From a virus: a stretch of DNA of 64,000 bases. Below, piece after piece: positions 1,991 through 23,169 of this stretch; positions within the stretch are counted from its first letter, which is position 1; every line of letters starts with the position of its first letter. The stretch spans positions 95,563 through 159,562 of IMG/VR virus record IMGVR_UViG_3300030380_005901; one strand, 5' to 3'. Both the position numbers and the translations under genes were made by a program. The notes under the pieces are model-generated. The model did no database searches and was not told the origin of the DNA. It worked only from the letters and a program-made list of their open reading frames with translations.

Positions 1991-3004
1991 TTAAGTCATT
2001 ATATCTTCTTTGTCAACCATAAAATACTCTAAAGGAACATAACCTAAATAGTTATTTCTAAAATACTTGTAATCATTAAACGTATCGTTTGTTACTTGAA
2101 CTCCATCGTTTGTACCTTCATCCCAACCAGTACCTGCCGAATGAATCATACTAATTTTGTTACCATTTACATCAGATACAATTCCCGTATGTTTAGCTTT
2201 TTTACCATCAAATAATAAAATATCACCTGGTTTTACTTCGTCATAGTTATTTCTACCCCCTCTAAAACCTTCTTCTCTTTTTAATGTAGAAGTAGTATCT
2301 CTTCCTGGTGAATCGAGACCATCAACATGTCTAAACGTCCAATCTACCAAACCACTACAATCACCACCGACACCATCAAACTCACCTCCCCACACATATG
2401 GTTCACCTAGTCTTTCTGATGCTTTATCTACGACTTCTCTTCCTAACTTAATTACTTTATCACTTATTTCATAGTCACCATCTTCAACATTATCCCAATC
2501 CAATTCTTTTTTCTCTTCTTCTTCCTCTTCTTCGTCATTATAGTGGGGTTCGTCATCATCACCCATAATATTTTCATCATCTAACCCTAATAATAACACC
2601 TCTTCTACTGACATAGCGTGTTCGTCCCCTAATTCTTCTATATCGTCATATAATTCTGTATAGGTTTTTGGACCCACTATTGAATCCCACTCAATTGGTT
2701 CAATAAAGGTGTCTTTTTGAAAGTGTCTTACCGCTTCTGCAGTGTCTGGACCATAAATACCGTCAATAACCGGTTCACCATCCCCGTAATGTCCTACATC
2801 ATATCCTAAAAGAGTTAACATAGTTTGAACTCTTTTTACCGAATTTTTATTGTTTTTTCTATACCTACGTAAATATTTACCACCTAAATCATCTTGAAAT
2901 TTATCTGCAGTATCAGATAAATTAGCTAATGTAGTTAAAGTTTCTGAAGATTCACTGTCTTCTTTAATTCTTCTTAATTGTCTCTCACTTATTTTTAGTC
3001 TCAT
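1991..3004 (-). CDS. Peptidoglycan-binding domain plus NlpC/P60 endopeptidase, with putative capsid-targeting N-terminus
   Basis: VKRVQTMLTLLGY...DGIYGPDTAEAVRHFQ (PG_binding_1); PYVWGG..DCSGLV..PGDILLF..HTGIV..IHS (Cys-His-His). Confidence 0.9.
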   Translation of the reverse strand: MRLKISERQLRRIKEDSESSETLTTLANLSDTADKFQDDLGGKYLRRYRKNNKNSVKRVQTMLTLLGYDVGHYGDGEPVIDGIYGPDTAEAVRHFQKDTFIEPIEWDSIVGPKTYTELYDDIEELGDEHAMSVEEVLLLGLDDENIMGDDDEPHYNDEEEEEEEKKELDWDNVEDGDYEISDKVIKLGREVVDKASERLGEPYVWGGEFDGVGGDCSGLVDWTFRHVDGLDSPGRDTTSTLKREEGFRGGRNNYDEVKPGDILLFDGKKAKHTGIVSDVNGNKISMIHSAGTGWDEGTNDGVQVTNDTFNDYKYFRNNYLGYVPLEYFMVDKEDIMT

Positions 3005-3416
3005 ACCATTCTTTTATTTTCATCAATTTTATACCTATTTCACTACTATTAATAGTTTCATTTAAATTTTTACTATTATTGTGGATAATATTAATAAATA
3101 CATCCTTAATTTTATTAGACTCATCTAAATACATAGTATTATTATCTAATTCAATAATAGTTTCATTTAACCTTTCATTATAAATATTTAAAATTAAGTT
3201 ATCCATTGGTAATGAATTAAAAAATTTGTGTTTACTTAATTTTAAATTAAGATTATTTAGTGAAATTACATTTTCATTTAGATTTTTATCTTCTATTTTT
3301 TTAATTATATTATCTTTTATATAAACACCCCATTCATTAAGAAAATTATTTTCTTTATTCTGTTGGCGTATTAAACGTTTATACTGATTATTATTGACAA
3401 TTAATTTCATTTTCAC
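2985..3416 (-). CDS. hypothetical head-associated protein (likely ATG start at 3410)
   Basis: MKLIVNNNQYKRLI leader, repeated LNE motifs, CTATTTAT upstream. Confidence 0.55.
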   Translation of the reverse strand: MKMKLIVNNNQYKRLIRQQNKENNFLNEWGVYIKDNIIKKIEDKNLNENVISLNNLNLKLSKHKFFNSLPMDNLILNIYNERLNETIIELDNNTMYLDESNKIKDVFINIIHNNSKNLNETINSSEIGIKLMKIKEWYETKNK

Positions 3417-3424
3417 TATCTTTA
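3393..3424 (+). promoter_or_regulatory. Bacteroidota sigmaA-type promoter for 3457..3777
   Basis: ATTG(3393-96)-N20-TATCTTTA(3417-24). Confidence 0.6.
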
Positions 3425-3431
3425 CTATATA

Positions 3432-3439
3432 ATAAATAG
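3432..3439 (-). promoter_or_regulatory. putative late promoter variant (CTATTTAT)
   Basis: One mismatch to ATATTTAT, upstream of the 3410/3004 operon. Confidence 0.5.
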
Positions 3440-3456
3440 TTTAAAAAACATAAAAA

Positions 3457-3777
3457 ATGAGTATTTTAATTAGTATTTTAGTATGTTATGGAATTTGTAA
3501 CATAATAGTATATGGGAGTATATTTGAAGGTTTAAGAGATAAACTAAATCTATACTCGCCAGATTTTTGGGGAAAATTGTTTAGTTGTATGATGTGTTTA
3601 CCTTTTTGGATTGGTATTTTTATATCTACTAGTGTACATTTATTGGGATATAATCAATTTTCACCTCTTTCATTGAATGGGTTAGATAATTGTTATATTT
3701 CTATATTTTTTGACGCTTGTTTTTTTTCAGGTACGACTTGGTTAATTCATACATTACAAGAACATTTTGAGGTATAA
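3457..3777 (+). CDS. small membrane protein, DUF1360-like, with CxxC
   Basis: Hydrophobic helices; IFEGLRDK...KLFSCMMCLPFWIG. Confidence 0.6.
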   Translation: MSILISILVCYGICNIIVYGSIFEGLRDKLNLYSPDFWGKLFSCMMCLPFWIGIFISTSVHLLGYNQFSPLSLNGLDNCYISIFFDACFFSGTTWLIHTLQEHFEV

Positions 3778-3805
3778 AAAAAGAGGAATTAATTTTCCTC
3801 TTTTT
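3776..3805. terminator. bidirectional intrinsic terminator between convergent genes
   Basis: aaaaagaggaa-ttaatt-ttcctcttttt hairpin with A/T tails on both sides. Confidence 0.65.
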
Positions 3806-4256
3806 CTAATTCTTTTTTAACTTCCTCTTTAGGAGGTAATTCTACTTTACTATTTAGGTGCCTACTACTTTGTGGTATTTCAATGTCTTTTAGGGTTGGT
3901 TCTGTAAGTTCTGGAATTACAAATTTTAATCTTTCTAAATCCTTTAAAGTTTTATCCGTAAATAACCTCTTTAATTCTTCTATTTTAGCTTTAAGTAAAA
4001 CTAATTTATTCTCTTTTTCTATGTTTACATTTATAACATTTTCTACATGTATAACCACATCATCTATAGAGTCTTTAGGATCTTTAGGGAAAACCATAAA
4101 ATAATTTTTGTTATTATTACTAGGTTTATAAGCTACCTTATCAGACTCAAACATATTCCAACCTTCTTTTAAGACTAAATCAACAACGGCTAAATCTTTT
4201 ACAAATCTCAATCCTGTTACATAAGGTCTTAAAGTATTTAATTTTTCTTGTATCAT
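3789..4256 (-). CDS. hypothetical protein
   Basis: 155-aa ORF. Confidence 0.7.
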   Translation of the reverse strand: MIQEKLNTLRPYVTGLRFVKDLAVVDLVLKEGWNMFESDKVAYKPSNNNKNYFMVFPKDPKDSIDDVVIHVENVINVNIEKENKLVLLKAKIEELKRLFTDKTLKDLERLKFVIPELTEPTLKDIEIPQSSRHLNSKVELPPKEEVKKELEKEEN

Positions 4257-4972: not shown

Positions 4973-5440
4973 CTACATTTTTAACTTATAATCTAAACTT
5001 TTTTCAAAAATTCTATATAATTCTAATAATACATCCATATCAGATCTAGTTTTTAACCTATAATAATCAAAAGACATATTAGGGAATTTATCTAACTTAT
5101 CTAAAATATCTTTTTTGGTGGGAGTGTAGTAAAATAATTCCACATAAAAATTAAAAAAATATTCTTTTAATAAATCGGTTTCCATAAATAATATACCCTC
5201 TTTACTAAAATTTTTAATTGTATGATTAAAACACCAATTAAAATGGTTTTTTATATCTTCTTCGTTATTTATTACGTCATCACCTAAAAAAGTATTATTA
5301 ACTTTTCTATTAAGAGTCATAATAAACTCATAATATAAATTACATTTATCATAATTTATATTATTTGCTTTATATAACAATGTCATTTCTTCCATTGTTA
5401 ACTCCTTAGTAATGTACTGTATAAACTCTGCACTATTCAT
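4973..5440 (-). CDS. hypothetical protein
   Basis: 155-aa ORF. Confidence 0.7.
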   Translation of the reverse strand: MNSAEFIQYITKELTMEEMTLLYKANNINYDKCNLYYEFIMTLNRKVNNTFLGDDVINNEEDIKNHFNWCFNHTIKNFSKEGILFMETDLLKEYFFNFYVELFYYTPTKKDILDKLDKFPNMSFDYYRLKTRSDMDVLLELYRIFEKSLDYKLKM

Positions 5441-5486
5441 ATAATATTAATATAATACCAATTATTACTCGAATAAAGAGTTATTA

Positions 5487-6323
5487 TTAAATAATTTTTT
5501 TAGATTCTACTTCTTTTATCATTTGGTAGTGAATTTTTGCAATCCTATCTCTACCCTCTTCACTTAAAAGTAATTTACTTTCTTCTCTATTAGTCATAAA
5601 GAAGTTTTCTGATAATATGGAAGGCATAACTACTTTACGTAGAACCCAAAAATTAGATTCTTTATCTGCGTCTCCATCTCTTGTATCTACCCTCATTTTA
5701 TGTGTTGGGAATTCTACTTTTGCCTTTTCATGTAATATTTGAGCAATTTTATCAGATTTAGTTTCACCTACAGTTGTATATACTGACCAACCGTGTGCGG
5801 ATTCTTTGTTAAATCCATTAGCGTGTACTGAAACATAAATACATTTCTTACCATCACTTTGTTGTCTTTCTCTGTATATGTCATTTGCTTTATCAGTTCT
5901 CCATCTTAATGATAAATCTTTTTCTGTATCAACTAAATTAATACACTCAATACCATCTTTTTCACACATCTTAATAATTCTATTTACAACTGCCCTATTG
6001 AACTCTCCTTCAAATAACTGTGTACCATCCTCCCACTTAGGTGATCGTTTACCAGGTGTCTGATATACACCGTCTATAATACCTCCATGTCCATTATCTA
6101 ATATCCATACGTACCCATCACTTTTTTCTATACTGTTGTTTCTACTTTGTATCTTTTTCCATGTCTTAGGTCCGACTATACCATCAGTTTTTAAACCGTT
6201 TTGTGCTTGAAATCTCATTACTGCTAGTTCAGTTGCAGGACCGAAATCACCATCAACAGTAATATTTAATAATTTTTGTAGTTCTTTAACATCATCACCT
6301 TTACTTCCTTTTTTTAATAACAT
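5487..6323 (-). CDS. Endolysin: PG-binding domain plus N-acetylmuramoyl-L-alanine amidase (Amidase_3)
   Basis: Likely start MLLKKGSKGDDVKELQ at 6323; ILDNGHGG, EGEFN, VSVHAN, SILSENFFMTN Zn/catalytic motifs. Confidence 0.92.
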   Translation of the reverse strand: MLLKKGSKGDDVKELQKLLNITVDGDFGPATELAVMRFQAQNGLKTDGIVGPKTWKKIQSRNNSIEKSDGYVWILDNGHGGIIDGVYQTPGKRSPKWEDGTQLFEGEFNRAVVNRIIKMCEKDGIECINLVDTEKDLSLRWRTDKANDIYRERQQSDGKKCIYVSVHANGFNKESAHGWSVYTTVGETKSDKIAQILHEKAKVEFPTHKMRVDTRDGDADKESNFWVLRKVVMPSILSENFFMTNREESKLLLSEEGRDRIAKIHYQMIKEVESKKII

Positions 6324-6360
6324 ATTTCTATTTTTTTGTTCTATTATTGGTTTGTCCGAA

Positions 6361-7125
6361 TTAACCTTCTCTTTCTGGTTTAATATTTTCATAATAGTGG
6401 CGGATATCTTCATCCCACTCTTCAATTTCATCTCGTAAATTTTCAATAATGAAATTAAAATATTTTTCCAAACTTTCATCACTTAAATTATTTAAACGTT
6501 TTATTGGGTTTGGTATTTCAATGGTGTCAATAATATCTGCATATTTAGACACTTTAATATCTTCTGAAAAATACGCACCTAAACCATCTTCATTGTGAGT
6601 AATAATATCACCCGCCAATTTATTACCTTTCAAATCTAATAAATATAGAAATATGTGTTCATAGTTACCATTAGTTACAAGCATAGTCATTAAATTCTCT
6701 TCAACCATAGTAATTGGATCTTCCATCATTTCTATTGTCCATCCCGGATAAATTTCCCTTCCTACTAGATTATCTAAATAATATTTTGCAATTATAAGTT
6801 TAGTTGCATCATCATAGTCTTCTATACTATATGAAAAGTCATCAAATATCTCATCATCAAATAAGACATCCCCAAACCTTTTATAAAAATTCCACATTTT
6901 AAAAACATAGTCATAATCTTTTAACCCAAAAACATTAATTAAATCATTGATTCTTAATGCATCACTTGCTTCCATATCATAAGTATTTTTACCAATACTA
7001 TGGTTAAATTTTTCTTTACTCATAGATTGGTGGATAAACTTAAGAACTGCCTTATCCATTCTAGTTAAAGTTTCTAATTCATCAATAATCGATTCTAATA
7101 ATATATTTTTAAAATTTAGTTCCAT
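6361..7125 (-). CDS. hypothetical acidic protein, putative head-packaged
   Basis: Likely start MELNFKNILLES at 7125, 5 nt after ATATTTAT. Confidence 0.65.
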   Translation of the reverse strand: MELNFKNILLESIIDELETLTRMDKAVLKFIHQSMSKEKFNHSIGKNTYDMEASDALRINDLINVFGLKDYDYVFKMWNFYKRFGDVLFDDEIFDDFSYSIEDYDDATKLIIAKYYLDNLVGREIYPGWTIEMMEDPITMVEENLMTMLVTNGNYEHIFLYLLDLKGNKLAGDIITHNEDGLGAYFSEDIKVSKYADIIDTIEIPNPIKRLNNLSDESLEKYFNFIIENLRDEIEEWDEDIRHYYENIKPEREG

Positions 7126-7130
7126 TACAT

Positions 7131-7138
7131 ATAAATAT
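7131..7138 (-). promoter_or_regulatory. putative phage late promoter ATATTTAT
   Basis: Recurrent oriented motif, directly downstream of a terminator. Confidence 0.7.
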
Positions 7139-7149
7139 AATGAAAGCAT

Positions 7150-7175
7150 AAAAAAACCCCCATAAATGGAGGTTT
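7150..7175 (-). terminator. intrinsic terminator
   Basis: AAACCTCCAT-TT-ATGGGGGTTT followed by a T-run on the minus strand. Confidence 0.8.
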
Positions 7176-7195
7176 AATTAGTGGTTTGTGGGTGG

Positions 7196-8050
7196 TTAAT
7201 CCGATAATAAGTTTTTATCTTTAACTGATTCCATTAAGTTTTTAAAAACTTTAGTTTCTTCAGTATAATCATTAGTTTTTGTGTTAACATCACCATATTG
7301 GAAATCATATAATTTCTTCATCTTTTCTACATTCTCATTTATAGATTTTTCATTTCTAAAATTTAATACTGTAGCCTCATTCAATGATTCGTCCCATCTC
7401 ATTTTAAATGTTTGGTTACCATCTGTCATTAAAAAAGTGTGATTATCAACCTTATAGTTTTCAGGTATTAATTCTTTTACTTCTTCTACTGAAGTGAATT
7501 CAGTTTTAAAATTTAATCTTTTCATTTTTTCATTTTTTGATTCATTGACACCTTTAGTTACCCTAACTCTTGGAGTTTGTTGATATTCTGTTGGTTCGTC
7601 ATATTTATATTTTTTCTTTAGTTCACCATTTTTCATCAAAACTTCAAATGTATCATCATTTTCATCAGTTTCTCCGAAACCATCTTTAGTACCAAATTCT
7701 TTATCATACTCAGAAGTATCATTTAGCTTTTCTATACGGTTCATAAATGATTTAAATACTTCACTACCTTCATCATCATACTTTAACCCTTGCATTCCAG
7801 AACCTAACGCCTCTATTTCATAAGGATCGATACCTTTAGGTGAATCTTGTTCTCTATCTACTTTTAATACTGGATCTAATTCTTTTAGTTCATCACCATA
7901 ATAATCTTCTAATTTTTTACCAATAGCCTTTAAAGCATCTTTATTAATAGTTGCATCTTCTTTATGAACTTTTTCATAAGTTTTTAACCCATTAGGAGAT
8001 TCTTCATTAATGGTTACTTTAGTCTTTTTAGTTAAAAATTTATTTTCCAT
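7196..8050 (-). CDS. hypothetical head-associated protein
   Basis: Many L/I/V-x-E sites (INEE, VNES, LNEA, INEN, LMES); ATATTTAT at 8069-8076. Confidence 0.65.
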   Translation of the reverse strand: MENKFLTKKTKVTINEESPNGLKTYEKVHKEDATINKDALKAIGKKLEDYYGDELKELDPVLKVDREQDSPKGIDPYEIEALGSGMQGLKYDDEGSEVFKSFMNRIEKLNDTSEYDKEFGTKDGFGETDENDDTFEVLMKNGELKKKYKYDEPTEYQQTPRVRVTKGVNESKNEKMKRLNFKTEFTSVEEVKELIPENYKVDNHTFLMTDGNQTFKMRWDESLNEATVLNFRNEKSINENVEKMKKLYDFQYGDVNTKTNDYTEETKVFKNLMESVKDKNLLSD

Positions 8051-8095: not shown

Positions 8096-9244
8096 TTATT
8101 TTTTGAGTTTTAAATTACTCTTTTTGATTATTTTATTTTCATTAAATACATTATCTATTTTCATATCTGATGTATTTGTTAGTGTAATAGGTGAGGTTTT
8201 TTTACTTCCATACCCTTGATTACAATAAGGATATGTGTTACATTTTTCTTTTATATTAACAAATTTACCTCCCGGATATGCTAACTTATTTGCCCCTCTC
8301 CAATTCTTTTTATTTTTTGCCCACATTGCCGGTGTTACATATGAACCTACCGCACCCCCATAATCTACCGCCTCTTCTAATTCTTCATCTTCTTCTAATA
8401 TACCCATAGAAAACATTTTACCAATAGGTTTTGTCATACCATTTTTAGAAACCGGTATTTTATTTTTTGCAAACCTTCTACTTATAGGTTCTTGATTTAA
8501 TGGTGCAACAAATGCACCTGCACTACCAGCACCAGTAGCTTCTTCTAATTCATCATCTTCAAAATCTTCTGATTTTCTTCTTTCTAATTCTTCAGAACGT
8601 TTTTCTCTTATCTTATCAAAAATTTCTTTTTTAGTAAATCTATTTCTTTGTTGTTGTCTTAATTGATCTCTTAGTCTATTGGCAATTTCATTAGTATCTA
8701 AATCTTCATGAAATATTTCCATATCATCCATTATTAATTCTAACTTTCCTTCTTTACTCTTTTCAAATAATTCTTTTTCTACTCTTACAGTTTTTTTAGT
8801 TCCATTTTTACTTTCTACTGCAATTATACAAAAATTGGGATTAGTATAATAATCCGAAATATTATTAACGTTTTGAGTTGCTAATTCTGTTGCTTGTTCT
8901 ATAGGTAAATGATTCTGTTCTATTTGTGTACCAATATTAATTTCTTCTTTCATCTGTGGTGCAATTTTTTGGAGTGACTCTACACCACTTAAATTTAATT
9001 GAGTTTTAAACTCTTTTCCACTATTAAATATTTCATTTACACCTTCTTCTTTACCCTTAGTACATTTTAAACTCATTAACTTAATTAATTGTTTTAAAAT
9101 ATTGATTTGTTTAGTAGGTATTTTATCACTGTGTTTATCCACCAATTTATTTAATACCTTATCCGCAACTTTTAGTTGGGTGGTATTATTACAAGACATT
9201 ATAATGTCTTTTACTTTGTCGTAGTCTCTTTTAATATTTTCCAT
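8096..9244 (-). CDS. hypothetical head-associated protein with repeated ELEEA-Gly-rich motifs
   Basis: Likely start 9244 (TAATG coupling); ELEEATGAGSAGAFVAP and ELEEAVDYGGAVGSYVTP. Confidence 0.65.
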   Translation of the reverse strand: MENIKRDYDKVKDIIMSCNNTTQLKVADKVLNKLVDKHSDKIPTKQINILKQLIKLMSLKCTKGKEEGVNEIFNSGKEFKTQLNLSGVESLQKIAPQMKEEINIGTQIEQNHLPIEQATELATQNVNNISDYYTNPNFCIIAVESKNGTKKTVRVEKELFEKSKEGKLELIMDDMEIFHEDLDTNEIANRLRDQLRQQQRNRFTKKEIFDKIREKRSEELERRKSEDFEDDELEEATGAGSAGAFVAPLNQEPISRRFAKNKIPVSKNGMTKPIGKMFSMGILEEDEELEEAVDYGGAVGSYVTPAMWAKNKKNWRGANKLAYPGGKFVNIKEKCNTYPYCNQGYGSKKTSPITLTNTSDMKIDNVFNENKIIKKSNLKLKK

Positions 9245-9504
9245 TATTTTATTGCGTTTTTCCAAAACATACGTCTCATCCATAATTCTCTATAAAGTTG
9301 TTCTAATACATCTTTACTAATTTTAACTACTTCTTTTTCAAACTTAGTCCCCTTTATTTCTTTACTAACTATATTAGTAACTTTTTTCTCTAAATCACTA
9401 CCAAACGCATCCTTAATCTCTTTACGTATCATTACACCAATTTTATTTTCATCGGTTTTAGTTAACGCTTCTTTAATTATGTGTTTTAATTCAATATCGT
9501 TCAT
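9244..9504 (-). CDS. hypothetical protein (LKHIIKEAL leader)
   Basis: 86-aa ORF; ATATTTAT at 9523-9530. Confidence 0.65.
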   Translation of the reverse strand: MNDIELKHIIKEALTKTDENKIGVMIRKEIKDAFGSDLEKKVTNIVSKEIKGTKFEKEVVKISKDVLEQLYRELWMRRMFWKNAIK

Positions 9505-9522: not shown

Positions 9523-9530
9523 ATAAATAT
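9523..9530 (-). promoter_or_regulatory. putative late promoter ATATTTAT
   Basis: 18 nt upstream of ATG 9504. Confidence 0.7.
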
Positions 9531-10004: not shown

Positions 10005-10290
10005 TTCTTTTTCTTTCTAATTCTTTTAACTTATCTTCTGTTTTTCTAAGAACAACTTTAGTACTGTCAATTGCGTATAAAATAACATCAATTTCTTTTT
10101 GTAATTTTATATTTGCTTTAATAATACTATCGTTTGATATTAGTAGTTTTTCATTTTGTTTTTGTAAAACACTAATTTCTTCTTCATATTCCTCTATAGG
10201 TACACTAGGTCTAAATATAAAACTAAGGACTAAAGCTACTGCTAAACCTAATATTAAAATCGCCTTTAAGTCTATATTAATTTTAAGCAT
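9910..10290 (-). CDS. putative i-spanin-like protein (N-terminal TM plus coiled coil)
   Basis: Likely start MLKINIDLK at 10290; AILILGLAVALVLSFIF followed by a coiled coil. Confidence 0.5.
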   Translation of the reverse strand: MLKINIDLKAILILGLAVALVLSFIFRPSVPIEEYEEEISVLQKQNEKLLISNDSIIKANIKLQKEIDVILYAIDSTKVVLRKTEDKLKELERKRNEVSNIVDNMDSDGVTNTLSDYLQRRGQNNR

Positions 10291-10819
10291 TTTCTTCGGT
10301 TGGGTTAGGCATGGATTCTCCTTCACCTTCTTCCCCAAATCCTGGCGAGTTCATACTGTCTGGACCTTCTTCTGCGTTTTCTTCATCAGTTTGTTGATTT
10401 TCATATTCTTCCGCAATTCTTTTAGCCCAATCATCTGACCATGTTTTATAATATGCAATTAATTTTTGTAAAAGTTTCATTGTGTCTTCTCTAAGTTGTA
10501 ATAACTCTGTAGTGACGTAAACACCTTGTGTATCGTCTAACGAATAAAACCATTCTACTGCATTATCTGTAAATTCTCCACTCCATTCTACATTTTGTGC
10601 TTTTGGATAAAGTTTCATTTGGTTAAATTTAACTCTTTGTGTTACAGTGTCTCTAAACAATCTTTCTTGTTCTTTCATTTCTGTAGGATCTAAAGAATTT
10701 TCATCTTGTTTTTGAACATTTAAATCCTGTTCAGTAATTAAAGTTTTAGTTAAAATAGATTTACTACCACTTTCTCTAATTAATTCTAATATTTTTCTAG
10801 TTTCATCGTGTTGACTCAT
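10283..10819 (-). CDS. hypothetical head-associated protein with acidic tail
   Basis: LIRES...LITEQ leader, acidic C-terminus. Confidence 0.6.
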   Translation of the reverse strand: MSQHDETRKILELIRESGSKSILTKTLITEQDLNVQKQDENSLDPTEMKEQERLFRDTVTQRVKFNQMKLYPKAQNVEWSGEFTDNAVEWFYSLDDTQGVYVTTELLQLREDTMKLLQKLIAYYKTWSDDWAKRIAEEYENQQTDEENAEEGPDSMNSPGFGEEGEGESMPNPTEENA

Positions 10820-14284: not shown

Positions 14285-14315
14285 CAAATATAAGTAAAAT
14301 TATTTAATCTGCAAT
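14285..14315 (-). promoter_or_regulatory. sigmaA-type promoter for the 14223/sigma operon
   Basis: ATTG-N19-TATATTTG. Confidence 0.6.
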
Positions 14316-16681
14316 GACGAAACGTCATTATTTTTTTCAATTGTTATAATTTTGTCACCCCAATCTTGTGTAATAGGGTTATGTGTTATGAGTAAAATTA
14401 CCTCATACATCTTTTTTATCTTATCAAAAAATATTTTAACATAATCTAAATTTATGTTTGCAACTTTACCCAATACCTCGTCAAATACTATTACATTTGG
14501 TTTTGGTAATGTTGATATTCTACCTAAGACACATCTTAATGCTAAGGATGCTAAAGTTGTTTCTAAACCAGAACCAGACTTTAACTTTTTAGTAACGTCT
14601 TTTTTGACTATATTAAAGTCTACTTCATTTTTATCATTAATCTCTAATTGTATTTGAAAATCACATACTTCATCTAACAGTCTGTCTAATTCATAATTGA
14701 TTATAGGTATTACTGAAGATAAAACTAGTTTAGATATACCATTTTTACCTATCATCCTATTATAAATCTCAAATATTTTTAATACTTCTTCTTCTCTTAA
14801 TATTTGTTCTATTATATTTTGATTATCAATATTGTTTTGTTTTTTAACTTTATTATCGTTTTTTAAATCTTGTATTTCATTTCTAATACTGTCTCTTTTT
14901 TTATTTAATTTTTCCAATAATTGATTGTAACCTAATATTTTACTTTCTAAATTTCTATTCTTCTCAATATATTCAATATTACGTTCATAGTTCTTATGTA
15001 GATTCATTTTTTCTTTTAAATCAACTCTTAACCCATCAATCTCTACTTCTAATCTGTCTCTACTTAATTCTAACTTATCTTTTTCATCGGAAATAGTTTT
15101 TAGATTACTTTGTTTATCCAAAGACTTAAGTGTAACACCTAACTCTTTTTGTATTACTTTTATTAAATCTTTTATATTTTTTAAATTTTTCTTTTCCTCT
15201 TTTATTTCTTTGCTATGATCAACATCTTCTAATGCTCTTTTACATGTAGGACAAATTTCTCCCTCCTCCAAATTTTTTATTAATAATTCTTTTCTTTCTT
15301 TATTACTTAATTCTTTACTTTCTTTCAATAGTAAATCTTTTTCTTCTTCTCTAATCTCATCATGTTTGTCTTCATCATAATCTACATCACCTATCTTAGT
15401 AATGTTTTTTATAATATCATCTAAAGATTTTTTCTTAGTAACACCTTCATCAGTTAAAGTATCTATTTCATCTTTAAGTGTTTTAGGATTAACATTACTA
15501 ACTTCATCATCAATCACATATTTTTCGGATAATAAAATTTCTTTTTTAGAATTAGCTTCAGATATTTCACCATCTATTTTTAATAATTTATTATTATTTT
15601 CTTTTATTAATTCTTTATTTTCTTTTATCTTTATTAGATTATCCTCTATTTCAAATTCCAACTCTTTAGTATTATGAATATTAGATTTCATCTTACTTTT
15701 AAAATCCGTCATTAATCCTTTATTAATCTCTTCTTTTTTCTCAATAATTTCTAATCCAATAAATTTAGTTAAAAGTCTTCCTCTTTGGGTGGGTTTGGTT
15801 TCTAATAAATCCTCTAGATTTTTTGCAGTTGCAACAATAGTTAACATAAAGTCATCAAAAGTACCTATAGTTTCAGAGATTAGTTTATCAGTTTCTCTTC
15901 TTTGTTCACCCTCTAAATTTTCGTAACTACCATCAGATAATACCCTAAAGAAATTTAATTCTGAAGAAGTTTTATATTTACCAGTTTTACTTTTTTTTCT
16001 AAATAATTTTCTTTCAATTATATACTCATCCCCATCTATATTAATTTCTCCACCAACTACTACTTCATCTTTATCTGTAAATGTATTGAATATTTCTGAT
16101 GCAGTGTCTGTCTTAGTAGTTTTACCAAAAAACAAAAACAAAAGAGAATCAATACTAAAAATAGTTTTACCACCTTGATTTGCAGGTAAAGAATTAACAA
16201 TAGTTAACCCTTTAAGTCCATTATAATCTATATTATTATCGTTACCAAAAGATAAAAAATTATCTATCCATAATTTATTTATACTCCATCTTCTATATCT
16301 TATATCTTCTTCACCTAAATTTACTAGTACATCATTAACTTTATCATCTAATCTACATAACCTATCAAAATCTATATCCACACCATTAATTTCAATCCAT
16401 TGAGTAAATAATTTACGTTGGTACGCAGTGTCCATTATATTATCGATTAAACCATCAGTAATATCTACTACTTTACCAACACTATTTTTTAAAATAGGTA
16501 TAAAATTTATTTTAATGGATGTTTTATTTAAACCATATTTATCAGAGAAATATGTTTTAACTCTACTAATTGTTTCTAATGTTCTATTTTCAGGATAATC
16601 TTGCCAATCAACCCTTAACTGTGCGTTTTTAGGAACGTCTACTATTTTCTTTGTTCTTACCACTTCAATATTATTTTCCAT
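14300..16681 (-). CDS. Rad50/SbcC/gp46-like ATPase with about 130-aa N-terminal extension
   Basis: NFLSFG, Walker A NQGGKT, zinc hook CPTC, coiled coils, SGLE signature, IVFDE, LITH. Confidence 0.92.
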   Translation of the reverse strand: MENNIEVVRTKKIVDVPKNAQLRVDWQDYPENRTLETISRVKTYFSDKYGLNKTSIKINFIPILKNSVGKVVDITDGLIDNIMDTAYQRKLFTQWIEINGVDIDFDRLCRLDDKVNDVLVNLGEEDIRYRRWSINKLWIDNFLSFGNDNNIDYNGLKGLTIVNSLPANQGGKTIFSIDSLLFLFFGKTTKTDTASEIFNTFTDKDEVVVGGEINIDGDEYIIERKLFRKKSKTGKYKTSSELNFFRVLSDGSYENLEGEQRRETDKLISETIGTFDDFMLTIVATAKNLEDLLETKPTQRGRLLTKFIGLEIIEKKEEINKGLMTDFKSKMKSNIHNTKELEFEIEDNLIKIKENKELIKENNNKLLKIDGEISEANSKKEILLSEKYVIDDEVSNVNPKTLKDEIDTLTDEGVTKKKSLDDIIKNITKIGDVDYDEDKHDEIREEEKDLLLKESKELSNKERKELLIKNLEEGEICPTCKRALEDVDHSKEIKEEKKNLKNIKDLIKVIQKELGVTLKSLDKQSNLKTISDEKDKLELSRDRLEVEIDGLRVDLKEKMNLHKNYERNIEYIEKNRNLESKILGYNQLLEKLNKKRDSIRNEIQDLKNDNKVKKQNNIDNQNIIEQILREEEVLKIFEIYNRMIGKNGISKLVLSSVIPIINYELDRLLDEVCDFQIQLEINDKNEVDFNIVKKDVTKKLKSGSGLETTLASLALRCVLGRISTLPKPNVIVFDEVLGKVANINLDYVKIFFDKIKKMYEVILLITHNPITQDWGDKIITIEKNNDVSSLQIK

Positions 16682-16685
16682 ATTA

Positions 16686-17345
16686 TTATTTTTTATCTAT
16701 AAGATTAGAACCCCAATGTCCTCCAGTTCCCTCATCTTCATCGTATATATCTCTAAAAGATCTCCCTTTAGAAATAGTACTTTCGTTTTTTAAATTTGTT
16801 ATATCTTTTTCTAAATCTAAAATAGTATTTTTAAGTTTTTTAATCTCTTTTTCTTTTTTATTTATAATACTTTTATTTTTTTTTATCTCTTCATCTTTAT
16901 TTAAAGTTTCCGTTGTTTTTATTATATTATCTTTTTCTATTTTGTTTAGATTATTTTTAATATTAATAATATTTTTTTCTTTTTCATTAATAATGTCTTC
17001 TAATTTACCTATTTTAATACCTAATTCATTTACTTGTTTATCATCTGTAATATAAACATCTTTCTCAATAGTTATTTCTTTAATAACTTCCTTTTCAACC
17101 GGTACTTCAACTAAAACCTCTTTAATAATTTCTACTGGAACTTCTTTCTCTACAACAACTTCCTTAATAACTTCAACAGGAACTTCTTTTTCAACTACTA
17201 CTTCTTTAGTGACGGGTGCATTACCATATTTTTCTATATTAAATCCAGTCTTTATATTTTTTAAAATAAAATCGTCTATGTCTTCAATACCATTGAGTTT
17301 ACAAAATTCTTTTATTTCGTCTCTTATTTTTTTAGGTATTCTCAT
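16686..17345 (-). CDS. protein with (V/I)EKEVPV repeats and coiled coil
   Basis: KEVVVEKEVPVEVIKEVVVEKEVPVEIIKEVLVEVPVEKEVIKE. Confidence 0.7.
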   Translation of the reverse strand: MRIPKKIRDEIKEFCKLNGIEDIDDFILKNIKTGFNIEKYGNAPVTKEVVVEKEVPVEVIKEVVVEKEVPVEIIKEVLVEVPVEKEVIKEITIEKDVYITDDKQVNELGIKIGKLEDIINEKEKNIINIKNNLNKIEKDNIIKTTETLNKDEEIKKNKSIINKKEKEIKKLKNTILDLEKDITNLKNESTISKGRSFRDIYDEDEGTGGHWGSNLIDKK

Positions 17346-18163
17346 TAAGCATTAGTTAGATATTCTTTACCTACTTCTAAATCTTCTAAAGAATTTATTT
17401 TAAAAACATAATAACCATATTCTGTATCTATATCATGTTCTGTGTAATCTAAATGTTCTACATCCCATATTAAGTAACCATGTTCAGATACTCTCTCACC
17501 AAAGTCTTGTTGGATAAAACTACCACAATATGTTATATTTATACCTTTATGTACAAAATTTTGTCTGTGGTGGATATCACCCATAATAACTGCATCACAC
17601 CCTTCAAACTGTTTTAACTCTGCAGATTCATCAAATTCAAAACCTACTGAAGTTATTGCACCGTTAACTGGTGCATGAAATAAACCAATATATTTCTTGT
17701 CATTACCATATTCTTTTCTACAAGCATCAATATCCGGTCTAGCGTTTTCTTCAAATATAGAATAACAACACCAAACTATGTTTTCATCTAAATAACACTT
17801 ACTTTCAGTCATATAGTTCACATATGGGTTATTCATTATTTCTATTATTGGTGTTAAGGAATCCAACCTATCTTTATTATTTTCCAAAAGATCGTGATTA
17901 CCCGCAATTAAAACCACAGGACATAACTCACTACATTTATTAAGAAACCAAGAAACTAACATTGTTAACTCGTTTGATATAGTAATCTTTTGATGCACTA
18001 TATCTCCTGCAATTACTATTCTACATTCTTCAAAAGATAAGTTGTTATCTTCTATATAAAATTTAACTTCATTGAGGAATTTGTTACAGACTTCTTTACA
18101 TTCATTATGTCTATTATAGGTTCTAAAATGTAAATCTGCAATGTGAAATAATTTTTTTATCAT
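17345..18163 (-). CDS. Mre11/SbcD/gp47-like metallophosphoesterase nuclease
   Basis: IADLH, AGD, AGNHD, LFH, MGDIH, YCGS. Confidence 0.92.
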   Translation of the reverse strand: MIKKLFHIADLHFRTYNRHNECKEVCNKFLNEVKFYIEDNNLSFEECRIVIAGDIVHQKITISNELTMLVSWFLNKCSELCPVVLIAGNHDLLENNKDRLDSLTPIIEIMNNPYVNYMTESKCYLDENIVWCCYSIFEENARPDIDACRKEYGNDKKYIGLFHAPVNGAITSVGFEFDESAELKQFEGCDAVIMGDIHHRQNFVHKGINITYCGSFIQQDFGERVSEHGYLIWDVEHLDYTEHDIDTEYGYYVFKINSLEDLEVGKEYLTNA

Positions 18164-18203: not shown

Positions 18204-19100
18204 TTAGGCAGGAATTAGAGTAGTTAACATATTATCTACATGTTCACTATAATCTGCACATTTGATAACTTTATAATTTGGGTTGTCTTCATTAAACCAA
18301 ACTAAATTACATCTACCTAACTTTAAGTTAGTATTTTTCTCAATTATTTTTTTATAGATATTAAGTTGTAATGAATATGTATTAAATTCACATTTATCTA
18401 ACATCCATAAACACTCCTTCATTTTGTTACCATAATCATCCTTCATATTTAGACGAGTATTAGTCTTCCAATCCCATATCTCTAAAGTACCATATCTTTC
18501 ATTCCAAAATAACTGATCCACCATACCACATAACATATAGTCTTTATCACCAACCACTAACTCTGATTTAATTGGTACTAACTTACCTTTAGCTACTGTA
18601 TCATTATAAAAGTTATGGAAATATCCTTCCATAATTTTATATGTTTCTTCTATCTCACTAAAATCCAATCCTTCAGGACTTTTAGTGGGGTAAGGCATTA
18701 TCTTATTATTTAGATAATTCTCAATATAATCGTGAAGTGTTGTACCTTCAAAAGTTGCATGATTGTTTTTATACTTCCATAACTTTTTGATGTCTTCTTC
18801 ACTAGTACATTCCTCTGATGGTTTTGGTTTAGAGTAATCAGGTCTATCATACGGATCACCTTCCATAGGATAAAAGTTTTGTTTATGTGCAAACTTATCT
18901 GCCATACTTTTAGCCTTATATATATGTCCTTGTTTTTCTGCCCATTTATCTGGTTTATCTACATTAGATTCAAAGTCTTCTTCAAACTTATGAATGAAAC
19001 CAGTACAGGATATTGTTTTCTCTCCATCAATATAATACGTATGAGGTTCGTCATAATATTTTATATTGTTGAATACGGATAATTCTTTAATAATCTCCAT
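18204..19100 (-). CDS. PD-(D/E)xK (RecB/Cas4-like) exonuclease
   Basis: Likely start MEIIKEL at 19100; GTTLHDYIE, SELVV, CGMVD, IWDWKT, QLNIYK. Confidence 0.85.
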   Translation of the reverse strand: MEIIKELSVFNNIKYYDEPHTYYIDGEKTISCTGFIHKFEEDFESNVDKPDKWAEKQGHIYKAKSMADKFAHKQNFYPMEGDPYDRPDYSKPKPSEECTSEEDIKKLWKYKNNHATFEGTTLHDYIENYLNNKIMPYPTKSPEGLDFSEIEETYKIMEGYFHNFYNDTVAKGKLVPIKSELVVGDKDYMLCGMVDQLFWNERYGTLEIWDWKTNTRLNMKDDYGNKMKECLWMLDKCEFNTYSLQLNIYKKIIEKNTNLKLGRCNLVWFNEDNPNYKVIKCADYSEHVDNMLTTLIPA

Positions 19101-19107
19101 TTTTTGT

Positions 19108-19115
19108 ATATTTAT
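19108..19115 (+). promoter_or_regulatory. putative late promoter ATATTTAT on the plus strand
   Basis: Motif is flipped in front of the plus-strand gene at 19152. Confidence 0.7.
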
Positions 19116-19120
19116 TATTA

Positions 19121-19152
19121 CAAAGATAAGCATTTATTTTTAAAAAAACAAA
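19121..19152 (-). promoter_or_regulatory. sigmaA-type promoter for the exonuclease
   Basis: TTTG-N20-TATCTTTG, perfect consensus. Confidence 0.8.
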
Positions 19153-21050
19153 TGGAATTAAAAGACATTATAAGAAATACTACTGATACCCAACCGTTCA
19201 ATAATTTTGAGATTGCAGTATTAAGAGAAATATATAGAACTTTGGATGGTAGAGTAAAAAGTAATAAAAAAACTGATATTAACCTTTTAATGGATTCTAA
19301 TATAATAGGTAACTTAGCATTAGATAAGGATATACTTATGTATTTTTATGCTTTATATAAAAATAATTTATTCAATGTTTTAAATAAAGATGGTGATTTT
19401 GCTTCTATAGAAGAAGTAGTTGTACCACAAATGAAAGAGTATCAAATTAAATTTTATCAAAACGTAAATTCTTGGAGAGAAATCAAAAATACTGTCGTGT
19501 CAGATGATAGTGATACTGCCCTAGACGCAATGGATTGGGAATACGATTATGGTAATATGGTGAATCCAGAATTAACAACTCACATAGATGATGAAATACA
19601 TCAAGGAGATTATGATGAGGTTTTTGATACAGATGCAGATGTATTACGAACTTTAAATGAAAGTATTAAGAATATATTAAGAGAGGAACTGAATACTGAA
19701 AAAGAACCGGTAATTTTTATTGCAGGTTGTTCTTCTGCAGGTGAATGTGGTAAAAAATATAAGTATTCACACCAACAACAAGGTAATATGTTACAGACTG
19801 CTTTAGGTGATAATTTTAATGTAATAACCCTATCACATGTACCCTCACCTTTATCAGAAATAAAAAAACATAATAATCCTTATGTAGTTATGTTTAGTGC
19901 TGGTGGTAAACACTCAGATAGGGTGGCAAACGAAATAAACAATAGCGAAAAAGACTTAAATAAAATTTATATTGTTGAGCCTTATACTTGTGGTTCAAAC
20001 ACTCTAAAAAAAGTTAACTCCGCAATAACTACGATAGGGAGTAATAATAATGTCTATGGTGGAACATCAAATTGTACAGGTAAAAATGTTGCGGGTAAAA
20101 TAGATAGTGAAAGTAATCACTGGAGTGCCTTAACTACTGTTGGTAATGATATTAAAAAGACATATATACCCCCTATACCCCCTATTTCTACAAACCCCAC
20201 ATTAGATATTAATATACCAAATACAAACATTCCTATGGATAATACTTATGTGGCACCACCTTATTTAGGTATATACGAATCTAAAAAAAGAAAAATAAAA
20301 ATTAGTGAGAGTCAATTATCCAAAATTGAGGAAGATTTAAAATACTGGAGTGTTAGTGATGCAAACCCAAACAAAAACAAATATGAAATGGGTGTGGAGT
20401 TAGAAGAAGAGGTAACTAGTATTCCAATATATAAAGATAATAATCCCCATAAAAGAGTGTATGAAAAAATGAGAAGAGAGTTTCCTGATACACCAGAATA
20501 TGTTTTACAAGATTATTACAGAAATATCATACTAATGAGAGCACCAGGTCATCGTCCAGCGATGAAAGATATTTTAAACACTTATAATGGTGATCCAATA
20601 CCATATATTAAGGGTGATGGAAATGGGTGGTGGTATAACTATTTAAAAGGTCCGTGGAAGTTACAAGTTTTAAACGTAAACCCAATGGACTTTGATAAAC
20701 GTACAGTAAGAGCGTTTGAACAAAGAGATTTTGGTAATATAAATGCATACAACGTACCCAAAGATGAAGAACGAATGGACACTCAAATGAGTATGAGGAG
20801 AGATGATGGAATGAACGAACCAGTTATTATTCTACAAAATCCTGATGGTACTTATCAATTAATAGAAGGGTGGCATAGAACAATGTCTATATTAAAAATG
20901 GGTGATAAACCTACTGAAGATTATTATGATGAAGATGATTACAATGATGAATTGTGGGACGAAGAAACACCTACTGAGTTAAAAGATTGGGATAAAGTTA
21001 AACTCAGAGCATTTGTTGCACCAAATCCAGACTTTAAAGAAAAAAAGTGA
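19152..21050 (+). CDS. multidomain putative head-packaged polyprotein: unknown domain, alpha/beta-hydrolase-like domain, ParB/Srx-like domain
   Basis: Likely start MELKDII at 19152; VIFIAG..VMFSAGG..HW; EPVIIL..YQLIEGWHR; internal LNESIKNILREE and KIKISESQLSKIEE. Confidence 0.65.
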   Translation: MELKDIIRNTTDTQPFNNFEIAVLREIYRTLDGRVKSNKKTDINLLMDSNIIGNLALDKDILMYFYALYKNNLFNVLNKDGDFASIEEVVVPQMKEYQIKFYQNVNSWREIKNTVVSDDSDTALDAMDWEYDYGNMVNPELTTHIDDEIHQGDYDEVFDTDADVLRTLNESIKNILREELNTEKEPVIFIAGCSSAGECGKKYKYSHQQQGNMLQTALGDNFNVITLSHVPSPLSEIKKHNNPYVVMFSAGGKHSDRVANEINNSEKDLNKIYIVEPYTCGSNTLKKVNSAITTIGSNNNVYGGTSNCTGKNVAGKIDSESNHWSALTTVGNDIKKTYIPPIPPISTNPTLDINIPNTNIPMDNTYVAPPYLGIYESKKRKIKISESQLSKIEEDLKYWSVSDANPNKNKYEMGVELEEEVTSIPIYKDNNPHKRVYEKMRREFPDTPEYVLQDYYRNIILMRAPGHRPAMKDILNTYNGDPIPYIKGDGNGWWYNYLKGPWKLQVLNVNPMDFDKRTVRAFEQRDFGNINAYNVPKDEERMDTQMSMRRDDGMNEPVIILQNPDGTYQLIEGWHRTMSILKMGDKPTEDYYDEDDYNDELWDEETPTELKDWDKVKLRAFVAPNPDFKEKK

Positions 21051-21121
21051 ACCGGGGAGGATTCGAACCTCCGACCGTCTGCTTAGAAGGCAGATGCTCT
21101 ATCCAGCTGAGCTACCGGTCC
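21048..21121 (-). tRNA. tRNA-Arg(UCU)
   Basis: GGACCGG acceptor stem, TCTGC-CTTCTAA-GCAGA anticodon arm, GGTTCGAATCC; no encoded CCA. Confidence 0.95.
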
Positions 21122-21127
21122 AATATG

Positions 21128-21211
21128 TACTCGAAGCGGGAATCGAACCCGCACTCCCAAATGGGAACAAGATTTTAAGTCTTGCGTGTCTACCTATTCC
21201 ACCACTCGAGC
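21128..21211 (-). tRNA. tRNA-Leu(UAA)
   Basis: GCTCGAG acceptor, CAAGA-CTTAAAA-TCTTG arm, long variable arm, GGTTCGATTCC; no encoded CCA. Confidence 0.95.
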
Positions 21212-21362: not shown

Positions 21363-21394
21363 CAAATATAGTAATAATTTTTTACTAAAACAAA
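21363..21394 (-). promoter_or_regulatory. sigmaA-type promoter, predicted leaderless, also drives the tRNAs
   Basis: TTTG-N20-TATATTTG-N4-ATG. Confidence 0.8.
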
Positions 21395-21583
21395 TTAATT
21401 GTAAGTTTTTGATATTACATCTAAAAATAAATCCGTATAAGAGTCCACTTTATTAGGGAAATTACGTTTCATACGTTTTGCCCAATCTTGTGCCCACTCA
21501 TAGGCGTGTTCTTTTTGTTTTTCCGTTATACAACTATTAACAACTTTATTAACATAATTAAACTGTTCTCTTAAATTTAACAT
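21395..21583 (-). CDS. hypothetical protein
   Basis: 62-aa ORF resembling the N-terminus of 8096..9244. Confidence 0.65.
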   Translation of the reverse strand: MLNLREQFNYVNKVVNSCITEKQKEHAYEWAQDWAKRMKRNFPNKVDSYTDLFLDVISKTYN

Positions 21584-21589
21584 ATTTTA

Positions 21590-21742
21590 TTATTTAAAAA
21601 TTATAGTATATAATATTGAATGTATCCCTTTTAAATGAACGGGATCTATTAACAATCTAATTTTCTTCATTAGTCTATACCTTTTTATTAATCTAAACTT
21701 ATTAGTTGTGTGATATTCCTCTATTATGTTTTGTAATTCCAT
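21590..21742 (-). CDS. 50-aa hypothetical protein not in the ORF track (MELQNIIEEYHTTNKF...)
   Basis: Manual translation; fills the gap; promoter 4 nt upstream. Confidence 0.55.
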   Translation of the reverse strand: MELQNIIEEYHTTNKFRLIKRYRLMKKIRLLIDPVHLKGIHSILYTIIFK

Positions 21743-21746
21743 ATTG

Positions 21747-21778
21747 TAAAAATAAAAAAAATATTTTACTTTACCAAA
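21747..21778 (-). promoter_or_regulatory. sigmaA-type promoter, predicted leaderless
   Basis: TTTG-N20-TATTTTTA-N4-ATG. Confidence 0.6.
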
Positions 21779-22161
21779 TGTTTTTTAAAATTTTCTAAAT
21801 ATTTTTTTATATTTTCTGCACCCACAGGATTTGCAGAATGTACCAAATAAAATGGTATATCTTTACCTTCATCTAAACAATATTCACACAACCATCTACA
21901 AGCATCATATCCCGTTTTTTCTTTAAGACTACCATAATTAATATCACCCTTTTGATTTTCTGGTAAATATGCATCATACGACAAATCATGATCGAAAGAT
22001 ATGTGAGTTGGTAAACCAAATTTATTAATTGCGGAGATAAACTGATAATAATCTCTCACTATAACCCAATCGTTATCACTTTCATATAATGGATTAACTG
22101 TTAATTTAAATACACAATAAGGGGTCCTGATATCATCGAGAAATAGTTTATAATTTTTCAT
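21766..22161 (-). CDS. cyclic-phosphate-processing receiver-like domain protein
   Basis: KLFLDDIR, ISFDHDL, TGYD, VHSANPVGAENI. Confidence 0.8.
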   Translation of the reverse strand: MKNYKLFLDDIRTPYCVFKLTVNPLYESDNDWVIVRDYYQFISAINKFGLPTHISFDHDLSYDAYLPENQKGDINYGSLKEKTGYDACRWLCEYCLDEGKDIPFYLVHSANPVGAENIKKYLENFKKHLVK

Positions 22162-22165
22162 ATCA

Positions 22166-22197
22166 TAAATGTACGAAAAAATTTTAACTATAACAAA
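22166..22197 (-). promoter_or_regulatory. sigmaA-type promoter, predicted leaderless
   Basis: TTTG-N20-TACATTTA-N4-ATG. Confidence 0.7.
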
Positions 22198-22224
22198 AAA
22201 AAATAAGAAATAATAAGGTTAATT

Positions 22225-23169
22225 TTAGGACATAGGTGAAAATATTTTATTTAAAAAAAGACCCGCTGGTTTGGTCCTACGGTATGCCCTCCAATAAGCT
22301 TTTTTATCTTCTTCATCCTCAGAATTTTTCCAATCGTCAATTGTATTATATTTTTTAGATATATTTATTAGATCTTCCTCAGTATCCAAATAGTTTTTAT
22401 GATGTTTCATATGAGAAGTTACATCTTCCCAAAATTCTTTACCTCTTTTATATGCCTGCCAGTAAGTAAGTCTATCATCATTTTTCCACTCTGTCTTAGT
22501 TTTATATTTTAAAGCAATTTTTCTTAGAGTGTCGTCTGAGTTTAAATACTTCATACCTAAAGCACCTGTTTTAGCAATATTTAAAATTTGCCAACCATTA
22601 TTCATATACTCAGTCTCATAAAAAGACTCTAATTCTTTAGCCTCTTTAAACCCAACTTTTTCTGGTGTAAGTTTTTTAAGTTTAAGACGTAGTTGTGGGT
22701 TACTTTCTAAAAACTTACCTACTGCGGTTTTTTCTTGTTTTTTGCTATAAGAACAACTATCTGTTGTGTGTTCCAAATGTCTTCTATCAATATCACAAGA
22801 CAACCCTATATATGCTGCTTTTGGTTTATCACCATCCGCATCAGTAAATTCATAAACATATATATCTTTTTCACCAAACCAACCAGCAGGTTCCATATCA
22901 GAAGTTAATTCTCGCCAAAATTTATTTCCCTCACCCTCATTATCTGTGTTCATAACCTTTACCCTATTCTTTGCTGCAAAATAACTATTTTTATCTACAC
23001 TATTTAACCATTCTTTTATAGTTCGATATTTTTTTGCTATCTTAATTAATTCGTCATTGGTGTACTTAACCTTTCTTCCAATTTTGTGAAATCTTGAACT
23101 TAATCTCCTATCATAAGACTCTCTTTCTTTAATTTTTTTAAATTGGTTTTCAGTTATAATAATCTTCAT
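22225..23169 (-). CDS. GIY-YIG endonuclease with helical repeats and putative capsid-targeting leader
   Basis: DIYVYEF..AYIGLS..RRHLEH..KELE..ILN; three LxxIAxKYxTxxEW-like repeats; MKIIITENQFKKIKE. Confidence 0.8.
   Translation of the reverse strand: MKIIITENQFKKIKERESYDRRLSSRFHKIGRKVKYTNDELIKIAKKYRTIKEWLNSVDKNSYFAAKNRVKVMNTDNEGEGNKFWRELTSDMEPAGWFGEKDIYVYEFTDADGDKPKAAYIGLSCDIDRRHLEHTTDSCSYSKKQEKTAVGKFLESNPQLRLKLKKLTPEKVGFKEAKELESFYETEYMNNGWQILNIAKTGALGMKYLNSDDTLRKIALKYKTKTEWKNDDRLTYWQAYKRGKEFWEDVTSHMKHHKNYLDTEEDLINISKKYNTIDDWKNSEDEEDKKAYWRAYRRTKPAGLFLNKIFSPMS

Follow-up and report, generated by a model that had tools for sequence, protein, structure and literature searches.

In phage T4, head-internal proteins carry a capsid-targeting leader of 10-20 residues, which is cut by gp21 after L/I-x-Glu, and propeptides of this kind often contain several gp21-type sites (PMC9026906, PMC5694885, PMC3012670). 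The internal proteins of T-even phages are diverse and have only the conserved capsid-targeting sequence (CTS) in common (PMC3012670), and CTS-mediated loading has been proposed as a general route for T4-like phages (PMC9026906). In phiKZ, 201phi2-1 and SPN3US, propeptides of head and ejection proteins are cut by gp175/gp245 after S/A-x-E (PMC5694885, PMC9026906). Here, we analyzed a 64,000-nucleotide (nt) stretch of viral DNA, bases 95,563-159,562 of a 159,562-bp IMG/VR virus record (genome code G000; the whole stretch is referred to as the window), in which short, similar peptides occur at the start, and also in the interior, of otherwise unrelated proteins. One set of these peptides or tags, termed class A, may together with its sister classes represent portable N-terminal propeptides that are removed by a protease after T4-like capsid targeting. 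Judged from sequence, we give this reading a roughly even chance of being correct.

The window comes from an uncultured jumbo phage of marine origin, which is AT-rich and distantly T4-like. Its record has a G+C content of 28.5% and an estimated completeness of 48%, and nearly all genes of the window are located on the minus strand. Matches to phage families among these genes include baseplate wedge, SbcCD, DnaB and ribonucleotide reductase. A DNA similarity search against known phages returned no match, as did tblastn of one tagged protein against the phage collection; the nearest cultured relatives, Microcystis phage Mel-JY01 and Flavobacterium phage immuto, followed by the classical T4-like phages, are distant. 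According to public runs, marine metagenomes from several studies contain the stretch. Two relatives recur below, G002 (198 kb), whose tagged NlpC/P60 protein is 84% identical to that of the window, and the complete genome G005 (353 kb).

All peptides that a first-pass annotation of the window had quoted were found where it had placed them. Class A is carried by ten proteins in the 159.6-kb record, and the window holds three N-terminal copies and one internal copy. A loose six-frame regular expression run over the full record gave nine class A matches, eight of which are located directly behind an initiator Met; a tenth peptide emerges once one gene start is corrected. Among the N-terminal 12-mers of all proteins, 75 pairs scored at least 30, compared to seven pairs for residues 40-62. 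A class A position matrix, applied to this genome and one relative, yielded 16 N-terminal and three internal matches and none in shuffled proteomes, which bears out the presumed enrichment over background. Class A is far beyond chance. The description of the peptides as near-identical was too strong, as identity across 20 residues ranges from 20 to 55%. Gln9 is invariant, and Met1 and Glu7 are almost so. The tags have a net charge of +2 to +7, are amphipathic and alternate between basic and aliphatic residues. A Sec/Tat signal peptide was rejected, since the tags are charged throughout and lack a hydrophobic core of about 7-15 residues.

Reading of all N-termini revealed further classes, A2 (a longer variant; n = 4), B (n = 8) and C (n = 4), which together account for about 17 additional proteins, all outside the window. 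When compared by blastp beyond the tag, the class A carriers are indeed unrelated proteins, with the exception of one adjacent paralogue pair and one common PG_binding_1 domain, and this picture, with the same exceptions, extends to the proteins of classes A, A2, B and C taken together. Four additional N-termini, at first considered as a 'class D' (genome positions 2131, 11311, 11606 and 45118), belong to true paralogues of a repeat-domain family and bear no tag.

Codon differences among the copies of the tag are synonymous or conservative. At positions with identical residues, 67-69% of the pairs share the codon, against 58-62% predicted by codon usage; selection on the tags therefore acts on the peptide rather than on the DNA. 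This bears on the possibility that the peptide itself is functionless and hitch-hikes on a mobile gene-start cassette composed of promoter, start and first codons, or that it reflects a signal in the mRNA or for translation initiation. Gene shuffling by way of regulatory cassettes is known from T4-type phages, and a promoter-like 8-mer, counted in gene orientation with A or C as its first base, often travels together with the tag, including on many IMG/VR contigs that keep it ahead of tagged genes. The 8-mer is positioned 10-29 nt before the start codon in 44 of 218 genes, compared to 6.5 ± 2.4 when upstream windows are shuffled and 12 when its reverse complement is counted, and the proposed co-occurrence with the tags was recovered: it stands upstream of 13 of 26 tagged and 30 of 188 untagged genes (P = 2.4e-4). 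However, this leaves half of the tagged genes without the 8-mer, codon choice at identical residues is near random with common conservative replacements, Gln9 and Glu7 are kept as residues, and in-frame internal copies occur far from any start. A gene-start cassette or initiation signal is thus highly improbable.

All window genes quoted in the first-pass annotation, or the operons to which they belong, had been said to follow the 8-mer; this applies to each of them except the gene at 10283-10819, which has none within 80 nt. In G002, the 8-mer is located upstream of the portal, protease, sheath, tube, baseplate and fibre genes. We rejected its identification as a T4 late promoter, as in gene orientation it corresponds to the reverse complement of that box. 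Its spacing is bimodal (10-14 nt for 19 genes and 20-29 nt for 20 genes), and it is closer to a Bacteroidota-type -7 box than to the T4 late box. The window also encodes a complete phage sigma-70-family factor with regions 1.2, 2, 3 and 4, a candidate reader of the 8-mer; by comparison, T4 has the much reduced gp55.

How widely class A is distributed was assessed by scanning IMG/VR with a degenerate DNA pattern covering the first eleven class A codons. The pattern gave 87 sites, all but one on contigs of 25-37% G+C and nearly all at the starts of open reading frames (ORFs). The 84 corresponding proteins of at least 60 residues fall into 25 unrelated clusters, one of which represents a GDSL + PG_binding_1 + SLT protein. 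A search with residues 1-40 of one tagged protein retrieved orthologues only and is uninformative on the breadth of the tag. For the NlpC/P60 protein, every homologue with an identity of 43% or more has the tag and, behind it, an acidic linker rich in Ser; in some of them, with tag and PG-binding part 67-80% identical, Peptidase_M23 replaces NlpC/P60. Members of the GIY-YIG family to which the tagged protein at 22225-23169 belongs start with class A, with class B, with a third peptide or without any tag; the tag classes therefore behave as interchangeable modules.

The cell-wall hydrolase at 1991-3004, which had been named an NlpC/P60 protein, has this domain according to Pfam. In an AlphaFold model, the catalytic domain is the sole confident part (predicted local distance difference test, pLDDT, 85-95), while tag and linker reach about 40; the tag is displayed as a detached helix (residues 7-18) with low confidence. 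Although weak, this model result may fit a flexible leader. A second, untagged protein with Amidase_3 and PG_binding_1 domains is probably the endolysin of the phage, and an untagged 799-residue protein contains an endolysin-like domain. With these two untagged cell-wall enzymes also encoded, the tagged NlpC/P60 protein is a third, distinct hydrolase. Both the separate Amidase_3 lysin and a distant cellular homologue of the tagged hydrolase (P0054), which has a Sec signal peptide at the position of the tag, support capsid targeting. The protein encoded at 2985-3410, whose gene leads the operon containing the NlpC/P60 gene, bears a degenerate tag in the window, while its G002 orthologue scores 16 bits with the closing Glu present. 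For the protein at 22225-23169, a Pfam scan gave no direct match; its naming as a GIY-YIG protein is supported by homologues (E 1e-36 to 1e-20) that bear PF01541. Beyond these cases, Pfam and PHROG scans of the tagged proteins and of the cluster representatives gave almost no matches.

In public runs, RNA-library contigs cover the window thinly and at 1900-2074 and 3310-3600 only, which renders them unusable for expression or transcript starts. A thousands-fold depth spike at 2504-2536 is a mapping artefact involving unrelated contigs; this segment encodes the acidic low-complexity linker repeat of the NlpC/P60 protein, which is also present in other organisms.

The internal tags are found in the three-module ORF at 19152-21050. 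The naming of its C-terminal module as ParB-like is weakly supported, by phrog_4715 (E 0.004) and an SbnI ParB/Srx domain (E 0.016). This module begins with a clear class A peptide and the middle module with a class B-like peptide, the score of which (7.4 bits) is equaled or exceeded by seven of 35,857 internal 11-mers. The G002 orthologue lacks exactly the middle module, and the borders of this insertion or deletion coincide with the class B-like peptide on the left and the class A tag on the right. With the breakpoints at the internal tags, a tag and its domain act as a cassette, and the internal tags mark the module borders.

In addition, the first-pass annotation had proposed a second leader class in the window. 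A strong class of this kind exists, as class B on the eight proteins elsewhere in the genome. Of its five in-window examples, the internal peptide at 19656-19688 is credible, and the other four are marginal or at background (Table 1). Further classes are suggested by sequence. Recurring N-terminal peptides occur in additional families at genome positions 60850-68769 (L005) and 93203-95614, and one such peptide also starts the GIY-YIG members P0061 and P0062. G002 has another N-terminal class of about 25 residues, with no copy in the window, on three otherwise different proteins (L014:10268-11245, minus strand; L016:15324-15767, plus strand; L017:498-1355, plus strand), two of which are encoded among tail sheath and tube genes.

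We then compared the ends of the tags with the sites used in T4 head maturation. In the T4 record, aliphatic-aliphatic-x-Glu is present in seven of the eight gp21 substrates examined (gp21, gp22, gp23, gp24, gp68, Alt and IPII/IPIII), the exception being gp67 with L-I-Glu only. The same motif closes the tag in 7/9 class A members, 9/9 class B members and most members of A2 and C. Among 55 distinct class A N-termini from IMG/VR, 51 have aliphatic/aromatic-x-Glu within residues 12-22, with a peak at 15-17, a region left free by the search pattern. Aliphatic-aliphatic-x-Glu occurs within residues 5-22 in 25% of the source-genome proteins, compared to 7-8% for internal windows of equal size; the corresponding values are 20% vs 7-10% in G002, 14% vs 7-8% in T4, 17% vs 10-12% in Flavobacterium phage immuto and 9.7% vs 8% in G005.

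A matching head module is encoded by G002, in the order known from T4: portal, two small ORFs, a Peptidase_S77 protease of the gp21 family (5056-5745; 91 bits in Pfam and 151 bits in PHROG), a 527-residue ORF and a gp23-like capsid protein. The 527-residue product, encoded at 5860-7443 in the position of gp22, has a net charge of -74 and no family match. In an alignment of the capsid proteins, the Glu-Ala site of T4 gp23 corresponds to aliphatic-aliphatic-Thr-Glu-Ala in G002, with both flanking columns invariant. The protease is encoded on 14 of 20 large tag-bearing contigs, including both of those that are at least 90% complete. Because the tags end in the cut motif, a relative possesses the protease, the capsid site carries the same motif and the 8-mer is common to tagged and head or tail genes, we favor capsid targeting as the best explanation of the tags.

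The tags could instead be docking or localization helices that remain uncleaved and have nothing to do with the capsid interior, with a partner such as a hub protein, the membrane, DNA or another part of the virion. The tag is amphipathic, basic and modeled as a detached helix, most tagged proteins are acidic and have no known function, and some tagged genes of G002 lie inside the tail gene cluster. The same alternative would accommodate G005, which has the protease but few such N-termini. However, it leaves unexplained why a Glu behind two aliphatics closes the peptide in 51 of the 55 N-termini, why an identical motif occurs at the capsid maturation site of the lineage, and why internal copies fall exactly on module boundaries. 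We consider docking helices unlikely, though far from negligible. Even less probable, with a very slim chance, is an N-terminal degron or timing signal by which a host or phage cytoplasmic protease would limit the lifetime of accessory proteins. A short, exposed and conserved N-terminal peptide would suit such a role, but nothing ties the tags to any cytoplasmic protease, and a degron fails to predict the motif at the capsid site, the internal copies or the 8-mer common with structural genes.

Several observations count against capsid targeting. Candidates are numerous for half a genome, with at least 26 among 218 ORFs. Aliphatic-x-Glu carries little information where Lys, Glu, Ile and Leu abound, as in this proteome, and is a necessary but not a sufficient feature, and the degenerate copy at 3410 is devoid of both Glu residues. 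The protease and capsid genes are absent from the 48% complete record of the window itself. G005 encodes the protease and yet shows almost no N-terminal enrichment of the motif, and the co-occurrence of tag and protease on the large contigs is confounded by common ancestry. In contrast to the internal proteins of T4, the tagged proteins are not basic, with a median isoelectric point of 5.1 compared to 5.35 for untagged ones (P = 0.3). The 8-mer also precedes the DnaB helicase gene, so that its 'late' character can only be presumed. Finally, a class A profile search of T4, Flavobacterium phage immuto and Microcystis phage Mel-JY01 detected no tag, and the T4 leader, as read from the N-termini in the T4 record, does not resemble the tags; the missing homology speaks to common descent, not to mechanism.

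The case for capsid targeting is thus circumstantial, although those predictions that can be tested on sequence all came out as expected; scaffold binding, packaging, cleavage and ejection are steps that we infer. If correct, the tag would form a helix, basic and amphipathic and 11 to about 28 residues long, that binds to the strongly acidic scaffolding core of the growing prohead, and the attached protein would become enclosed when the shell closes. A gp21-family prohead protease would cut behind the Glu of the closing aliphatic-aliphatic-x-Glu, and in class A a second cut may occur after Thr/Ser-Glu at position 7. The released cargo would remain in the head and exit together with the DNA at infection. 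This cargo would comprise the cell-wall hydrolase without signal peptide, the GIY-YIG nuclease-like protein, the ParB-like module and many functionally uncharacterized proteins, and the internal tags of the ORF at 19152-21050 would be cut likewise, splitting a polyprotein into its modules.

Packaging and trimming need not imply delivery. The tagged proteins might serve as core, filler or DNA-organizing components, a role comparable to that of T4 gp67/gp68 or of the inner body of phiKZ, and be degraded or retained. In line with this, the G002 ORFs located where T4 has gp67/gp68, and those behind the capsid gene, likewise start with aliphatic-aliphatic-x-Glu peptides, and many tagged proteins are small and have no enzymatic domains. 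Several cargos, however, are enzymes whose targets lie in the host (NlpC/P60, Peptidase_M23, GDSL + SLT, GIY-YIG), and gene content differs strongly among close relatives, as it does for the T-even internal proteins (PMC3012670). We regard this non-delivered role as improbable. Taking capsid targeting one step further, marine T4-like jumbo phages of this clade may use an 'address code' of interchangeable, protease-removable leaders, by which dozens of fast-evolving effectors (cell-wall hydrolases, nucleases, ParB-like modules and unknowns), some of them polyproteins cut inside the head, would be loaded for co-injection. This broader proposal is tentative, and we hold it to be rather more doubtful than the propeptide function itself.

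Table 1 Tags, tagged proteins, 8-mers and neighboring genes in the window. Percentages give the rank among untagged N-termini.
Feature	Position	Strand	Score or remark
Class A tag of NlpC/P60 protein, first 15 codons	2960-3004	-	33 bits
Cargo: PG_binding_1 + NlpC/P60 (CHAP-like) cell-wall hydrolase	1991-3004	-	Pfam; no signal peptide
Degenerate class A tag of 141-residue protein (2985-3410)	3369-3410	-	no Glu at either site
Class A tag of GIY-YIG-family protein	23125-23169	-	35.6 bits
Cargo: GIY-YIG-family nuclease-like protein, repeated helical modules	22225-23169	-	phrog_20046
Three-module ORF	19152-21050	+	N-terminal domain, alpha/beta-hydrolase-like middle, ParB/Srx-like C-terminal module; internal tags between
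Internal class B-like peptide, start of middle module	19656-19688	+	7.4 bits
Internal class A tag, start of ParB-like module	20289-20336	+	29.8 bits
86-residue protein, marginal class B-like N-terminus	9244-9504	-	1.7 bits, top 1.3%; aliphatic-aliphatic-x-Glu ends at residue 12
252-residue protein, marginal class B-like N-terminus, second gene of operon	59524-60282	-	2.3 bits, top 1.3%
Proposed second-class protein, at background	6361-7125	-	-2.1 bits, top 10%
Proposed second-class protein, at background	10283-10819	-	-2.7 bits, top 11%
8-mer, C-variant	3432-3439	-	29 nt before start of 2985-3410
8-mer	23174-23181	-	12 nt before start codon of 22225-23169
8-mer	19108-19115	+	44 nt before start of 19152-21050
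8-mer	9523-9530	-	ahead of 9244-9504
8-mer	7131-7138	-	ahead of 6361-7125
8-mer	60487-60494	-	at head of operon with 59524-60282
Amidase_3 + PG_binding_1 protein	5487-6482	-	untagged
799-residue protein with endolysin-like domain	61532-63931	-	untagged
Sigma-70-family factor	12903-13718	-	
NUDIX hydrolase gene	1603-1980	-	directly downstream of NlpC/P60 gene, same orientation
SbcC-like (793 residues) and SbcD/Mre11-like (272 residues) nuclease pair	14300-18163	-	219-residue ORF in between
PD-(D/E)XK-like nuclease	18204-19133		
tRNA-Arg(TCT) and tRNA-Leu(TAA)	21047-21211	-	abut end of the only long plus-strand ORF

If the tags are capsid-targeting propeptides, proteins that an uncultured ocean phage injects together with its DNA could be listed from sequence alone, among them anti-defence and host-takeover factors for which virion proteomics of cultured phages is otherwise the only means of discovery. 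The T4 mechanism would widen from about five proteins in a single model phage to a modular, multi-class system spanning 10-15% of the genes in a widespread marine lineage, and new natural leader peptides would become available with which foreign proteins could be packaged into phage heads. The insertion that resembles a cassette, bounded by two internal tags, points to a route by which cargo repertoires may evolve. If the reading is wrong, at least 25 protein families still carry a peptide signal that is under strong selection and awaits an explanation.

A full-text literature search returned no paper that ties capsid-targeting sequences to marine jumbo phages. What would be new here are the existence of several interchangeable tag classes, the scale of at least 26 of 218 ORFs, the internal tags in a modular polyprotein and the occurrence in an uncultured marine jumbo lineage.

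Among shell-loading systems outside this lineage, encapsulin cargo-loading peptides likewise are short and portable and send diverse enzymes into an HK97-fold shell. They differ in that their position is usually C-terminal, no protease removes them, and they serve a cellular nanocompartment without delivery to another cell. The Dar antirestriction proteins of phage P1 are diverse anti-host proteins that are loaded into a myovirus head (DarA/Hdf) and injected; their loading follows a hierarchy of partner proteins instead of one common cleavable leader. The phiKZ-type phages are also jumbo phages with dozens of head-internal proteins, and their gp21-related protease cuts after Glu. Their propeptides have several cut sites, and the paralogues gp53 and gp54 have identical N-terminal 15 residues. 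However, these propeptides are mostly longer than 100 residues and have no common portable tag, the P3 residue is Ser or Ala and not aliphatic, and the lineage is nucleus-forming and has a virion RNA polymerase.

Closest is the T4 CTS of IPI, IPII, IPIII and Alt. In both cases, a short N-terminal peptide with an aliphatic-aliphatic-x-Glu end resides on otherwise unrelated, fast-evolving proteins, and both lineages have a gp21-family protease, a gp23-like capsid protein and the T4 order of head genes. The T4 cargo Alt is an enzyme acting on the host, comparable to the tagged enzymes described here. In contrast to T4, with one tag class and about five proteins, there are at least four classes and at least 26 candidates in half a genome; class A has two candidate cut sites, internal copies occur in a multi-module ORF, and the cargos are mostly acidic. 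The leaders share no sequence similarity, and the putative system described here is known from sequence alone.

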